Below, piece by piece: positions 27,780 to 56,865 of a stretch of DNA of 64,000 nt. The stretch lies in assembly GCA_951406725.2 (NCBI GenBank), contig OX597823.1, forward strand, positions 8,184,001 through 8,248,000. Reading direction: 5' to 3'. Under the pieces are notes generated by a model. That model was not told the origin of the DNA. It worked only from the letters and a program-made list of their open reading frames with translations, and did not search any database. Made by a program: the position numbers and the translations under genes. Position 1 is the stretch's first letter. Every line of letters starts with the position of its first letter. Source of the stretch: Octopus vulgaris (taxonomy: Eukaryota).

Positions 27780-28400
27780 CAGTAACAAAACAAATAGCAG
27801 AAAACGACATTGATTATCTGACGGAAAATCGTCTAGATTACAATTCAGTCAGCATTTTTACTAGAAAATTTACATACAAAGAGTTTGAAACAGGTATTTC
27901 TAATCTAAAGAACGGGAACGCAATCGGTCTTGATATTCTCAAACGGGAGCTAAAACATATCTTTATATATAAAAGTCAAGTTGTGTGTCTGTCTCCTACG
28001 ATTTAGATTCCTAACTACTCCCACATTTTGCGGTGCAGTTTAACCAAAAGCGGGTATCTTATAGTCGTGATTCATATCGAGCCCTTCTGGGTATTAGCGA
28101 GCATCTACGATGAGTCTACGATTTTAAAAAAAATTACCATCATTTTTTTCCATTTTAATGCATTTTTTCGCTATTATATATGGGAAGTAACTCTCTAAAA
28201 ATGTCTATGATGAGTCAACGATTTAAAAAAAAATTTACCATAATTTTTTCCCCATTTTTAATGCATTTTTTTGCTACTTTTGGGTATAACTCTCTAAAAA
28301 TGCTTATATAGTTATTTCCCTTACAAACCCGAGCAACGCCGGGCGATACTGCTAGTTGGAATCAAAACACGATAATGGCTGTTCTAACTCTTTAACAACT
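27780..28400 (+). pseudogene. decayed LINE ORF2 fragment (start of RT region) interrupted by a Helitron
   Basis: FTRKFTYKEFETGISNLKNGNAIGLD...LKH | IGIKTR*WLF*LFNN reads through once the Helitron is removed. Confidence 0.65.
27960..28355 (+). mobile_element. non-autonomous Helitron
   Basis: A|TCTTTATATATAAAAG...CCCGAGCAACGCCGGGCGATACTGCTAG|T; same family as the 13384 copy. Confidence 0.88.
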
Positions 28401-37862: not shown

Positions 37863-38870
37863 GGAAGTATTCCAACATGGTGGAATACGAATAAGATGAC
37901 CTTTATTGTAATATACAAGCAGAAAGGTGCTGAAGTCTCAAACCAATAACTTGCTTGCCCCTACTATGGAAACTGTTTAAAAGTATGTCTGTGGATAATA
38001 TTTTTGTACATTTAGGGGAATTCAACCTACTCCCGAATGAACAGAATGTGTGCCTGAGAAATTGAAGAGGGACGAAAGAATAGTTAGTAACTAACAAAAT
38101 AACTATAGGAAACTGCAAGAGATGATAAGCTTAGCAGTGGGGATAACTGAATAAAAAAAAAAAAACACATGACAGGGTCTCCCAGTAAGAATGAAAAGGA
38201 ACTGCTCACCTATATCAGTACTGTGAGCATTTAGCTATAAGACGAGAATGAACTATGTACTTCCTAGTGTGGAGCCTTTGTGATGAAAAAGGAGACATCA
38301 TAAAAGTGATGGAATATATCTACTGAACGATAAGAATAAACAGGAGATCGATACAAATGATGGACATAAATATCTGAGAGTCCCGGAAGCTGATGCTATA
38401 AAAGATAGAACAATGGCGAATATAGTAAAGAAAGAATATTACCGAGAAGAAAATCCAAGCTCAATGGGATAAATGATATTCCTGCTCAAGAGCCGTATAG
38501 TGCCGGATTAATTAAGTGAACAAAAGAATACCGTGAGAAAGGAGATTGCTGGCTGTCTATAAGGCCTAACACTCATAGGTAGATGTTGATAAATTGTATT
38601 TCGGTAGAAAGAATGGAGGAAGAGTATTAATAAGCGTAAAAAAGAAAAAAAACCTGTATGGAAGTATAGAGAGATTAATGAAGTGCGTTGCTGAGAGCAA
38701 AGAGGATCTTTTGATAGCAGTAAGAAGAGAGGATATAGGAACGGCTGCAAAAAGTTTGAATGATTGGTTGAGAATGTTACATACCCTGATTCCACAGAAT
38801 ACCTATTTGCTTGGCACTGTAAGGTTTATAAGAAAGGTACTTGACCCTACTGCTGCAGGACACAGCTCTA
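37863..38870 (+). mobile_element. heavily decayed R4/Dong-like RT fragments
   Basis: PITCLPLLWKLF...LLPNEQ...RGTKE*L, YKYL-like segment and LYFGRKNGGR motif. Confidence 0.7.
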
Positions 38871-39441
38871 TATCTAACAATCTAATAAAGGAAGAAGAAA
38901 AACGAAATGGCGAGTGAATGAAAGTAACAACAAAAACACATCACCATGAACAGCAAGAATAATAATACCTTGATTGAAAAACAACGTGGTCATGGAACCA
39001 TGCGTCACCATTAAAAGCAAAATAAACCCGATAATATTGCCAAGACTAGATCGATATTGACAAAGTAAGAAAGTGATATTAGCAGGCTTTCAGTAAGTTA
39101 AATTGATAATTTTGTTTTGACTTGCAGCTGGTTGTTGTATACAAAATTTATTGTTTAAATATACACGCGTGTAAATGAGAAACAGTAAGGATGTTGGACA
39201 AATATTAATAAAAAATCTGGATATAAATAAGACAAGGCGGAAACGATCCCAGTAAATCCAACTTTACAAATTATTAATATATACACAATGCAATGTTTAA
39301 ATAACGATCAGCAAGTGCAAGGAAGAAGGGAACATTTGGTGCAAAAAACAAAACAAAACAATAAGAATTTAAAAATAAACCAACACTACTTAAAAGTACT
39401 TCAACTCTATTCAGGTATAAAACTTACTGTTCGAACAGCAG

Positions 39442-39479
<38 letters not shown>

Positions 39480-39552
39480 TTTTTTTTTTATATATATATA
39501 TTTTTATATAATGATAAATCTCAGAGCGAGTTATAAACAGTAGCGGTAACAC

Positions 39553-39999
39553 ATCGTGACGCATATTTGCCATTTGAATATGGCTAACCCCTAAGGGTGG
39601 ATGCTACTGTAGTTTGTAGCCCCAGGAAGATATCTCCTCCAGCTGGCTATAGACACACTATCTGTGTCCTCTCAGTATTTGTGAAGGGGAGTCATCCTCC
39701 CCGTCTTCAACTCATGATACACACGGACCCGAGTTTCAAGGTGTTTACCTTTCATCAGCGTGTGACAATCATGGTTGTCGACGAGAAGTCAGCTCCCTTC
39801 ACAAATACATATACTTTTTCCAGTGTCGATTGACATTGTGAGTTGAAGACGGGGAGGATGACTCCCCTTCACAAATACTGAGAGGACACAGATAGTGTGT
39901 CTATAGCCAGCTGGAGGAGATATCTTCCTGGGGCTACAAACTACAGTAGCATCCACCCTTAGGGGTTAGCCATATTCAAATGGCAAATATGCGTCACGA

Positions 40000-40000
<1 letters not shown>
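39553..40000. repeat. 162-bp inverted repeat with a 124-bp spacer, between (TA)n tracts
   Basis: 39553-39714 is the reverse complement of 39839-40000 (no mismatch seen by eye). Confidence 0.95.
39713..39773 (-). ncRNA. type I hammerhead ribozyme
   Basis: Minus strand: CATGAT-TGT-CACACG CTGATGA AAGGT-AAAC-ACCTT GAAAC-TCGG-GTC CGTGTG-T-ATCATG. Intact core, GUC site, all stems pair. Confidence 0.88.
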
Positions 40001-40058
<58 letters not shown>

Positions 40059-47078: not shown

Positions 47079-47676
47079 GGACACGAGCTGGCAGAAACGT
47101 TAGCACGCCGGGCGAAATGCGTAGCCGTATTTCATCTGCCGTTACGTTCTGAGTTCAAATTCCACCGAGGTCGACTTTGCTTTTCATCCTTTCGGGGTCG
47201 ATTAAATAAGTACCAGTTACGCACCGGGGTCGATGTAATCGACTTAATCCGTTTGTCTGTCCTTGTTTGTCCCCTCTATGTTTAGCCCCTTGTGGGTAGT
47301 AAAGAAATAGGTATTTCGTCTGCCGTTACGTTCTGAGTTCAAATTCCACCGAGGTCGACTTTGCTTTTCATCCTTTCGGGGTCGATAAATTAAGTACCAG
47401 TTACACACTGGGGTCGATGTAATCGTCTTAATCCGTTTGTCTGTCCTTGTTTGTCCCCTCTATGTTTAGCCCCTTGTGGGTAGTAAAGAAATAGGTATTT
47501 CGTCTGCCGTTACGTTCTGAGTTCAAATTCCACCGAGGTCGACTTTGCCTTTCATCCTTTCGGGGTCGATAAATTAAGTACCAGTTACACACTGGGGTCG
47601 ATGTAATCGTCTTAATCCGTTTGTCTGTCCTTGTTTGTCCCCTCTATGTTTAGCCCCTTGTGGGTAATAAAGAAAC
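47079..47676 (+). mobile_element. SINE family B trimer
   Basis: Head plus three 184-bp units (47127, 47311, 47495) within one TSD ATATATACAGTATAAAGG (47063 / 47677). Confidence 0.93.
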
Positions 47677-48326: not shown

Positions 48327-48400
48327 CTTCTCGCTCAGAGATTTTATATGTAAATACATATATATATACATATATATACATATACATATATATATATATA

Positions 48401-48778
48401 CTAGCAGTATCGCCCGGCGTTGCTCAGGTTTGTAAGGGAAATAACTATAAAGCATTTTTAGAGAGTTATAGCCAAAAAATAGCAAAAAAATGGGAAAAAA
48501 AATGATGGTAAATTTTTTTGAGAGTTAAAAAAGGTGGAGTTGCGTCCCCTAGACAGTCTGTGGTTTGGGTTTCTGATTCTCGACCCCATGTCGAATTTAT
48601 CGATTTTTTTCAGAACTGGGGGAACTTTTCAAAATTTTCGCTGCGTTAGTTTTGAATTATGACATTGGGCTATGTGTGTGTCAAGTTTCATCAGAATCGG
48701 TTGAAAGCCGTGGTCAGAGTGAGGGTACGAGAAAACAGACACACAGAAACACGCACAGACAAACTGCCGTTTATATAT
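48401..48778 (-). mobile_element. non-autonomous Helitron, second subfamily
   Basis: Same 3' hairpin and CTAG end as the 13384 and 27960 copies, different 5' portion, embedded in (TA)n. Confidence 0.8.
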
Positions 48779-51597: not shown

Positions 51598-53264
51598 CAC
51601 TACCGTCCGAAATTAATTAGCACCCTTGATTTGCTCTTCACTCAAGGTATTTGCTGTCACCTAGTGGCCATATCTCGAACTATTGCTTTGTTGTGAGTTC
51701 ACTGTTGTGCAGAACGATGACGTAACTTTGTTTGCAGAGCAGTTTGAGAGTCTACAGCCTAATGATGTGGACATAGCAGTGCAACAACAACTTGGAGTGC
51801 GGATGCAGACAAATCTTCCTTTGTTTAATAGATATAGGTAGCGCCTCGCAAGGACCGAAATCACACCGTACTAAGTTTTCTCATCGTGTAAGACGTTTTG
51901 AACAGCTCGTAGGTTAATTGATTTGTGTATTTGCAAGATTTTTTTTTCCTCACAAATTCTCCTACACTCTGCTTGATGACGTCACTTCCAGTTCACAAAA
52001 CTTTCTGTTATACATCAAATAAGGTGAGAAATTCTGCTTTCTTTCTTTTTTGTTTAATGAATAATAACTCATAGCAGTTTTGTTATAGCATAACATTATT
52101 CAAATGAATAGTTTTAATGAAAATAACTGGTTTTTATCGTTCATTCCTAGATGGGCCCAGGACCTCGCATGACCTTGGAGAGACGGTACGAGGCTCTCTC
52201 GTGGCGTGGGAAGCTGTCGGAGGCTGCAATAGCCAGAAAACTTGGTGTAGCCAGGCGCACAATTCAGTGCTTATTTAAGAAATACGAGGAAACCAGATCA
52301 GCAGCTGACAAAAAGGGTAGGGGACGGAAGAGGCTGATCCGAAAGTCACTGTACAACCGAAGGGCAACGAGCCGGCAACTGGCGGAGGAGATGCAAAAGA
52401 TGACAGGGAAGCAGTTGTCTACAACCACCGTCAAGACCAGATTACTGGAAGCCGCTCCTTAGAGCCCAAAACCGGAAGAGGCGGCTGCTCTGGGCCCGTG
52501 CCCACAAGACATGGACCGTGCAGCAGTGGCAGACAGTGATGTTCACTGACGAGTCGCGATTCAGTCTCGTCAGTGACAAGCCTGTCCATGTGCGACGCTG
52601 CAGGGGTGAGCGCTTCAACAAAGACTGCATTGCTCCCACCATGAAGCATGGTGGGGGTGGTCTGATAGTGTGAGGGGCGTTCAGCTACAGTGGTGTTGGG
52701 CGGCTCTATGCCGTCGAAGGCAACATCAACGCAGCAAAGTACGTTGAGATAGTACGGGATACCTCTTTGGTGGCGAGGAGTACGTGCTCCAGCAGGACAA
52801 CGCGCCTTCCCACACAGCCAAGCTCACAACCGGTTTCTTCAAGGACCATGGGGTGACGGTCATGGGGTGACGGTCATGGACTGGCCTGGCCAGTCACCTG
52901 ACCTGAACCCTATTGAGAACCTCTGGAGTCAATTGGGTAGGGATTTGAATGTGCAGCAATACAGGAACCGACACGAGCTGTTTGGGGCACTTCTTGCTGC
53001 ATGGAGGGCCATCCCTGCACAGTACCTGCAGGCACTCATAGACAGCATGCCGACCTGCGTAGCAGCTGTCATTACTGCCAAAGGAGGATCAACAAGATAT
53101 TGACTAAATTTCACGATTAATAACAATTATGTGGTGTACTGGGATATGTTTTAATAAATTTTTGATTAAAAACGAGTTCGTTTCTGATAATAAGTTAATT
53201 AAATTAAGAAAATGTAAGAAAATGTAGAAATTTGAGAAGTGCTAATTAATTTCCGACGCAAGTG
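51598..53264 (+). mobile_element. Tc1-family DNA transposon, both ends present
   Basis: TIRs CACTACCGTCCGAAATTAATTAGCAC / GTGCTAATTAATTTCCGACGCAAGTG, TA TSD. Confidence 0.95.
52151..53103 (+). pseudogene. Tc1 DDE transposase pseudogene
   Basis: HTH AIARKLGVARRTI, VMFTDESRF, QQDNAPSH, WPGQSPDLNPIENLW, KGGSTRY; deletions, a stop and a 14-bp tandem duplication. Confidence 0.93.
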
Positions 53265-55963: not shown

Positions 55964-56283
55964 GTGAGGGCGCGTGGCTTAGTGGTTAGGGCATTCGGCT
56001 CATGATCGTAAGGTTGTGAGTTCGATTCCCGGCGACGCGTTGTGTCCTTGAGCAAGACACTTTATTTCACGTTGCTCCAGTCCACTCAGCTGGCAAAAAT
56101 GAGTTGTACTTGTATTTCAAAGGGTCAGCCTTGTCACTCTCTGTGTCACGCTGATTATCCCCGAGAACTACGTTAAGGGTACACGTGTCTGTGGAATGCT
56201 CAGCCATTTGCACGTTAATTTCACGAGCAAGCTGTTCCGTTGATCGTATCAGCTGGGACCCTCGTCGTCGTAACCGGCGGAGT
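55964..56283 (+). mobile_element. SINE family C
   Basis: A box TGGCTTAGTGG, B box GTTCGATTCC, GTGTCCTTGAGCAAGACACTT; TSD TAATATAACTCA (55951 / 56287). Confidence 0.93.
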
Positions 56284-56545: not shown

Positions 56546-56865
56546 ACTCCGCCGGTTACGACGACGAGGGTCCCAGCTGATACGATCAACGGAACAGCTT
56601 GCTCGTGAAATTAACGTGCAAATGGTTGAGCGTTCCACAGACACGTGTACCCTTAACGTAGTTCTCGGGGATAATCAGCGTGACACAGAGAGTGACAAGG
56701 CTGACCCTTTGAAATACAAGTACAACTCATTTTTGCCAGCTGAGTGGACTGGAGCAACGTGAAATAAAGTGTCTTGCTCAAGGACACAACGCGTCGCCGG
56801 GAATCGAACTCACAACCTTACGATCATGAGCCGAATGCCCTAACCACTAAGCCACGCGCCCTCAC
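56546..56865 (-). mobile_element. SINE family C, inverted near-identical copy
   Basis: Reverse complement of 55964-56283 with about 2 substitutions seen. Confidence 0.93.

Follow-up and report, generated by a model that had tools for sequence, protein, structure and literature searches.

The element at 39511 to 40000 of the window, the 64,000-nucleotide stretch of microsatellite-rich animal DNA analysed here, is probably a 5′-truncated copy of an abundant hammerhead-bearing repeat that was inserted by the machinery of a Penelope-like element (PLE), with the long hairpin around the ribozyme arising as a by-product of the insertion. Evidence for this reading comes from the observed anatomy of the locus, the abundance of its family, the variable joints of other copies and the pattern of family variants, from which the action of a PLE protein, the mode of priming and the cleavage behaviour discussed below would follow. 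Taken singly, the locus is an ordinary, textbook insertion of the PLE type; the useful part is the family to which it belongs.

Anatomy of the insertion and its hammerhead

The locus comprises the following features, given by window position and strand.

39498..39510, plus strand: left copy of a 13-bp direct repeat, a tentative candidate target-site duplication of low complexity at the edge of the (TA)n tract 39445-39510
39511..39552, minus strand: 42-bp tail present at one end only, the 3′ end of the sense copy, deeply covered by family contigs
39553..39714, minus strand: left arm, the 3′ part of the sense copy
39713..39773, minus strand: type I hammerhead with extended stem I, predicted cut after the C at 39726, 2-bp helix III and near-palindromic tetraloop
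39715..39838, minus strand: loop, the 5′ part of the sense copy, 5′-truncated at 39838 and holding the ribozyme, the rod partner strand 39774-39808 and a small hairpin
39839..40000, plus strand: right arm, an inverted, 5′-truncated, tailless second copy joined head to head to the sense copy
39999..40011, plus strand: right-hand copy of the direct repeat (13 bp), which shares the final 2 arm bases and leads into the (TA)n tract 40006-40058

The arms (39553-39714 and 39839-40000) are exactly 162 bp long and 100% complementary, as the earlier note had reported, and enclose a loop of 124 bp; the arms being identical, the minority letters of the right arm are also those of the left. The unit as a whole is asymmetric. 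Its placement between (TA)n tracts, as first described, holds on the right side, where the arm meets the tract directly, but on the left the tract is set off from the arm by 42 family bases (39511-39552). This one-sided tail had been overlooked, as had the 13-bp direct repeat adjoining both ends. Read on the minus strand, the loop, left arm and 42-base tail form a single 328-nt unit, and the right arm is the 3′ part of that unit inverted, minus its last 42 bases. The 13-mer of the direct repeat occurs three times on the plus strand and once on the minus strand of the 64-kb window, two of these occurrences adjoining the element, and may tentatively be regarded as a target-site duplication. Beyond the arms the two flanks differ from each other, and microhomology is absent to the left of the junction. 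Directly left of the insertion lies a 112-aa open frame (38579-38917) with no Pfam match, which by eye resembles a decayed LINE end.

Other copies of the family extend 5′ beyond 39835, identifying the window copy as truncated. The truncation point (39820-39838) falls within a small native hairpin, and other copies go on from there as an imperfect mirror of 39800-39826; judged from their sequence, the family has a further stem-loop 5′ of the part kept in the window copy. A motif from this 5′ continuation was absent from the 64-kb window at up to 2 mismatches.

The hammerhead on the minus strand runs from the 5′ strand of stem I (39764-39759) through CUGAUGA (39758-39752), stem II (39751-39738) and GAAA (39737-39734) into a 2-bp stem III with its tetraloop, followed by GUC with C17 at 39726 and the 3′ strand of stem I (39725-39720). 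Past an internal loop, stem I is extended by 6 more pairs (39773-39768 with 39718-39713). The invariant core is complete, comprising C3 U4 G5 A6 N7 G8 A9, G12 A13 A14, A15.1-U16.1 and H17, together with helices I-III, and the CUGAUGA/GAAA core, GUC site, short stem III and 6+6 bp stem I of the original description are thus all present. Two details of that description need adjusting: the 5-bp stem II is possible, but a 4-bp stem with a 6-nt loop is an equally valid reading, and the ribozyme lies mostly rather than wholly inside the loop, its outer helix sharing 2 nt with the arm. A descriptor search of both strands of the 64 kb returned this hammerhead as its sole match, and a match of this quality appeared in 0 of 200 dinucleotide shuffles (a loose match in 10 of 200). 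The covariance models proposed earlier as a check did not recover it, the Rfam search giving no hammerhead family at gathering score or at E up to 10. Rfam rows for microRNAs and viral UTRs scored far below gathering and were rejected as reflections of the hairpin or of TA runs. Scanning metagenomes with the hammerhead pattern produced a single match, within a bacterial gene and with no stem II by eye, which was dismissed as chance, and a scan of viral contigs with the arm motif produced 0 matches.

When the inverted arm is left out, the sense unit, which measures at least 328 nt and has stop codons in all three frames, is predicted to be highly self-paired (z -6.0, with 0 of 100 shuffles as good), forming a rod tipped by the ribozyme. 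A short piece of the arm had been seen to recur in the spacer, and this 14-mer is indeed found again at 39795-39808 and 39865-39878. It is no separate oddity, because it is one strand of the unit's own rod, the predicted native partner of 39675-39688.

The repeat family and its variants

Public contigs contain the stretch or part of it in 20 of the 24 runs listed (9 studies and 3 organism labels, with one surveyed run possibly from the source sample), and 4 of the 24 were matched to 39477-39880 at 85% likeness. Three DNA runs yielded 4155, 2208 and 3604 matching contigs, and the hammerhead unit is therefore an abundant repeat family, summed contig depth not being equivalent to copy number. No RNA run is listed as containing the stretch, which carries no weight either way on expression, and the fourth run, X15 (82 contigs; guessed to be RNA), was left out as evidence of transcription. 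The depth peak at 39575-39630 probably includes other repeats, and the left flank at 39477-39504 is without cover, repeats having been skipped. Alongside the contigs that cover the 42-bp tail deeply, 19, 17 and 20 contigs in the three runs stop at 39556 and run into (TA)n. This recurrent tailless end is the same end as that of the right arm in the window, and the occurrence of tailed and tailless ends in all three runs gives the family two alternative 3′ ends.

The joints listed for other copies number nine, in a table without orientation; each was seen in one contig (one joint in two runs), its sides being 29-54 letters long and matched at 85% likeness. Two are skips and seven are strand switches, each at another place and none at the window breakpoint. 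A 1952-nt contig piece with the depth of the joint 39630/39688, the only joint whose orientation is visible, has the same geometry as the window copy. When all seven strand switches are read in this geometry, the ribozyme is cut or lost in 4, lies in both arms in 1 and lies in the loop in 2, the arms of these last two being merely 2 and 21 bp. The earlier note had proposed looking for the arm and loop layout in other copies; strand-switch joints do recur, but all seven listed lie at other breakpoints. None of the 32 contig pieces listed, out of 32 + 10084, spans the window junction, and the joints listed include no head-to-tail joint, the unit running past the surveyed stretch. Two readings of the joints were ruled out: inverted copies ending near the cleavage site (39725), around which the seven other joints do not cluster, and native hairpins mis-read as strand switches, whose register near 79483-79486 is missed by the coordinate sums of 79288-79595.

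These joints also bear on whether the palindrome is genuine. An assembly or fold-back read artefact is highly improbable: the 100% identity of the arms would fit it, as would a junction spanned by no listed contig, the best runs containing 81% of sampled words, but the flanks differ beyond the arms, the mirror ends at a biologically recurrent end, the direct repeat brackets the unit and similar joints occur in independent runs. There is equally little to commend a foldback or MITE-type DNA transposon that had captured a hammerhead between 162-bp terminal inverted repeats. Long perfect arms, TA-rich flanks and remnants of a Tc1-type transposase in the window are what such an element might leave; however, the arms are not terminal, a 42-bp tail standing on one side, the arm runs on into the ribozyme as one co-folding unit, and the candidate duplication is 13 bp rather than TA. 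Arm lengths and breakpoints moreover differ among copies, at odds with terminal inverted repeats common to all, and this reading is largely refuted.

Within the ribozyme (39713-39773), 10 variants at 9 sites are listed for the family, unphased and with 6 rows beyond those listed. None falls within the 11 invariant core bases, a result that taken alone is not significant (P 0.14). Five of the 10 lie where the base is free or in a loop (N7, H17, loops 2 and 3), four make up two partner pairs, at the base of stem II and the end of the stem I extension (chance 0.003), and one breaks a pair at the stem II base. For the whole unit 40 variants are listed, of which 30 are unpaired or pairing-neutral in the predicted fold and 10 break a predicted pair. 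Six of the listed sites carry a letter in the window copy other than that of the family majority. Helix III becomes a perfect palindrome with the letter found at 39729 in 91-94% of depth across the three runs; the window copy has the minority letter there.

Folding with the majority tetraloop letter gives a double hammerhead as the best predicted two-copy structure (-41.5 vs -32.2 kcal/mol for two monomers), and the family ribozyme is predicted to act as a double hammerhead via its palindromic helix III. For the letter of the window copy, the model places the double hammerhead at -39.7, the best fold at -40.4 and the monomers at -37.6 kcal/mol, a gain of only 2.1, and the tetraloop is predicted to pair with the catalytic core (P about 0.9). 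Lone self-cleavage of the window copy is likely to be weak, slow or none, because a single motif is present and its minority tetraloop letter is predicted to misfold the core. Nearest-neighbour folding leaves out loop 1-loop 2 contacts and disfavours the active monomer even with the majority letter (+5.1 kcal/mol), and invertebrate retrozyme hammerheads with a 2-bp helix III are described as cleaving in vitro as monomers at 0.1-0.8 per min (PMC7229834); weak activity here is therefore a prediction only. The minority tetraloop form, at 6-9% of depth, offers a natural test of whether cleavage matters for spread.

These predictions weigh on the proposal of the earlier note that the hairpin is a working unit, whose minus-strand transcript forms a 162-bp duplex, cuts its own loop, and feeds Dicer/ADAR or serves as a replication intermediate, a reading that now appears very unlikely. 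The duplex is predicted to form with P about 1.0 and to leave stems I and II intact, every core base is present, and the arms contain 48 and 37 adenosines (minus strand). Self-cutting is weakened, however, by the single motif from a family predicted to be of the dimer type and by the predicted pairing of the tetraloop letter with the core. As for a replication intermediate, which is unlikely, the breakpoints vary from copy to copy, one ribozyme releases no unit-length RNA, and the native rod is predicted to be lost once the inverted arm is present (P 1.0 to 0.0). After a cut the pieces would still be held together by the arms (-343 kcal/mol in the model), with no circle possible, and no host gene was recognised in the 64-kb window. 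The plus strand would form the same duplex without any ribozyme, so that a role as a Dicer/ADAR substrate, possible from either strand if transcribed, would be independent of the ribozyme. The insertion had also been called very young; identical arms and a surviving candidate duplication agree with this, but 162 identical bp bound the age loosely, at up to 1.9-9.3 Myr for assumed rates of 5e-9 to 1e-9, and a SINE pair elsewhere in the window, which has no link to PLEs, is nearly as alike (318/320).

At the C-G pair 39773/39713, the minority letter of the arm is compensated by a base in the single-copy loop, suggesting from the sequence that the minority letters of the arms were inherited from the source element and are not later decay, and fitting the copying of both arms from one source. 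A different order of events would have a plain monomer, either a retrozyme or a PLE fragment, inserted first and the inverted arm added later by DNA-level template switching or repair, with the perfect identity reflecting that later event or homogenisation of the arms. In yeast, the arms of inverted repeats are described as becoming homogenised by template switching (PMC8604942); within the window, another closely spaced inverted pair matches at 318/320 positions when other copies of that SINE are 78-91% alike; and the departures of the window copy from the majority letter at the 6 listed sites could be seen in the same light. A later origin of the arm is nonetheless unlikely, given that the arm ends at the recurrent tailless end of the family (39553-39556), which a random DNA event would not choose, that the candidate target duplication brackets both copies and that strand-switch joints recur in other copies.

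Probable insertion by PLE machinery and relation to known elements

PLE insertions are described as 5′-truncated; often they bear a second, inverted and likewise 5′-truncated copy at the 5′ end as well as a one-sided tail of 30-40 bp (PMC8557442), and some PLE clades favour microsatellite targets (PMC8557442, PMC8969392). At the locus an inverted 5′-truncated copy, a one-sided tail, a hammerhead in the repeat and a (TA)n target are all present, the tail of 42 bp being slightly above the published range. The PLE link drawn in the earlier note is strengthened by the one-sided tail, by the tailless ends in TA tracts and by the inverted truncated copies, and this anatomy together with the varying breakpoints makes the layout a likely recurring by-product of insertion. 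Neither an RT nor a GIY-YIG frame was found among 150 of the 157 window frames of at least 70 aa that were scanned, and the PLE link therefore rests on anatomy. A weak search found no protein relative of a 49-aa frame ending at the tail, and a partial direct tandem (pLTR) is absent at the window locus. A 31-codon open stretch with two ATGs (39511-39603, minus strand) ends exactly at the tail end, as would be expected where a PLE ORF begins, but is just as likely to be open by chance.

The preferred account has a PLE reverse transcriptase and endonuclease inserting the repeat into a (TA)n tract. The protein would nick the AT-rich target on each strand, with the nicks about 13 bases from each other, and prime two cDNAs on the element RNA, the first starting at the tail end (39511), extending for 328 bases past the ribozyme and stopping at 39838 in the small hairpin, and the second starting at an internal site at about 39553-39555 and stopping after about 162 bases. 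The two truncated cDNAs would then be joined head to head; in a variant of this route, a single cDNA snapping back on itself would yield the same product. The ribozyme would lie in the loop only since one cDNA passed it and the other did not. Purified PLE protein is described as cutting and extending both strands of AT-rich DNA and as starting at two RNA sites that delimit the tail, and ribozyme cleavage was not required for PLE insertion in vitro (PMC11167929).

The locus shares with EN+ PLEs (Penelope/Poseidon, Neptune, Nematis and Hydra; Craig et al. 2021, PMC8557442; Frangieh et al. 2024, PMC11167929) the 5′ truncation, the inverted truncated copy at the 5′ end, the one-sided tail, the AT-rich or microsatellite target and the two alternative 3′ ends. 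A type I hammerhead near the 3′ end is likewise common to both (PMC8557442, PMC11167929). Unlike in EN+ PLEs, no RT/GIY-YIG gene was found with the locus among the window frames scanned, its tail is 42 bp, and its hammerhead is canonical rather than of the minimal PLE shape. The canonical type I hammerhead is instead a likeness to metazoan non-LTR retrozymes (Cervera and de la Pena 2020, PMC7229834; Li et al. 2026, bioRxiv 10.64898/2026.07.22.740005), the window motif having the retrozyme-type 6-bp helix I with internal loop, 4-5 bp helix II and 2-bp helix III with tetraloop. Like these retrozymes, whose units are described as about 170-400 nt, the element is non-coding, highly self-paired, a few hundred bases long and present in many copies, with a candidate target duplication above 4 bp. 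Unlike them, the locus is a monomer with an inverted fragment and one motif rather than a head-to-tail tandem; with a single ribozyme and no tandem, it falls outside the two-ribozyme definition of an active retrozyme. The word "inverted" is absent from the main text of PMC7229834, and in the text of bioRxiv 10.64898/2026.07.22.740005 it appears only in a reference, with "tail" absent.

A third likeness is to the dimer-dependent hammerheads of newt and axolotl satellites and the min-HHRs of PLEs (Cervera and de la Pena 2014, PMC4209133), which have a short, palindrome-capped helix III and share the double-hammerhead fold predicted for the window family. In min-HHRs, helix II is described as 7-8 bp and helix I as 4-5 bp long, with one additional base following A9 (PMC4209133); unlike them, the window motif has a short helix II and an extended helix I, as in canonical motifs. 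Hammerheads 100-700 bp apart on opposite strands have already been ascribed to truncated PLEs (PMC4209133). The odds are about even between two sources, an autonomous PLE of which this would be the end and a short retrozyme without autonomy. It is conceivable, if somewhat doubtful, that the family as a whole consists of short, non-autonomous retrozymes bearing a canonical hammerhead, with the PLE tail and inverted copy present in its dispersed copies.

PLE families have been recently active in an octopus genome, according to a report whose main text leaves ribozymes unmentioned (PMC13282606). A literature search mostly covering open papers, main texts only, found no report of a cephalopod hammerhead or retrozyme; the TE libraries behind PMC8557442 and PMC13282606 may already include the family. 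Mobilisation of animal retrozymes by PLEs has been proposed on the grounds of co-occurrence (PMC7229834) and of sequence trees (bioRxiv 2026.07.22.740005), and an argument for it from insertion anatomy was not found in the literature searched. How the inverted copies and tails of PLEs arise is, according to PMC8557442, still to be explained.

The marks of PLE insertion around a canonical, retrozyme-type hammerhead may connect retrozymes with PLE machinery insertion by insertion. Since the family combines high copy number with both types of end and numerous inversion joints, the questions of mobilisation and of inversions and tails can be tested from one assembly. If the retrozyme reading is true, the family would supply insertion-level evidence that PLE proteins mobilise animal retrozymes, and the two priming sites could be mapped in vivo from its thousands of paired ends, which would also put twin priming by a PLE dimer to the test. 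The genome would also be seeded with perfect dsRNA hairpins, some of them ribozyme-looped, for RNA editing or small-RNA production.

Other repeats and genes in the window

Two stretches (13381-13784 and 27958-28357) and an end piece (48398-48473), which are taken to be non-autonomous Helitron-like elements (TC start, GC hairpin and CTAG end, minus strand), include a segment with some resemblance to the hammerhead repeat. An extra segment of the first copy (13452-13535), missing in the second, is similar first to the arm at 39563-39615 (E 1e-5, 77% over 56 bp) and then, in the opposite orientation, to the tail, a likeness equalled by 1 of 2000 shuffles. By its sequence, the segment looks as if a related piece had been flipped across the native stem and then captured.

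The transposase remnant is a broken Tc1/mariner-type gene at 52151-53100, with HTH_Tnp_Tc3_2 and DDE_3 matches in three frames. ARAGORN found no tRNA in the window, and a bacterial promoter scan, the bacterial model not being apt for an animal genome, gave hits at chance level. A U6 snRNA gene occupies positions 1-96, its 5′ end cut by the window edge (102.8 bits, Rfam).

SINEs in the window resemble what are presumed to be octopus SINEs. A 184-bp unit, assumed to be a SINE of the octopus type, is repeated three times head to tail at 47127-47675 with 97% likeness, and dispersed relatives lie at 4672, 6495, 24135 and 51035. The inverted SINE pair consists of full 320-bp copies (55964-56283 and 56546-56865) with a Pol III A/B-box-like head, arranged tail to tail 262 bp apart. 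With 318 of 320 positions identical and other window copies at 78-91%, this pair, which has no PLE link, may represent a very young subfamily or arm homogenisation, and would provide a second long potential RNA duplex in the window.
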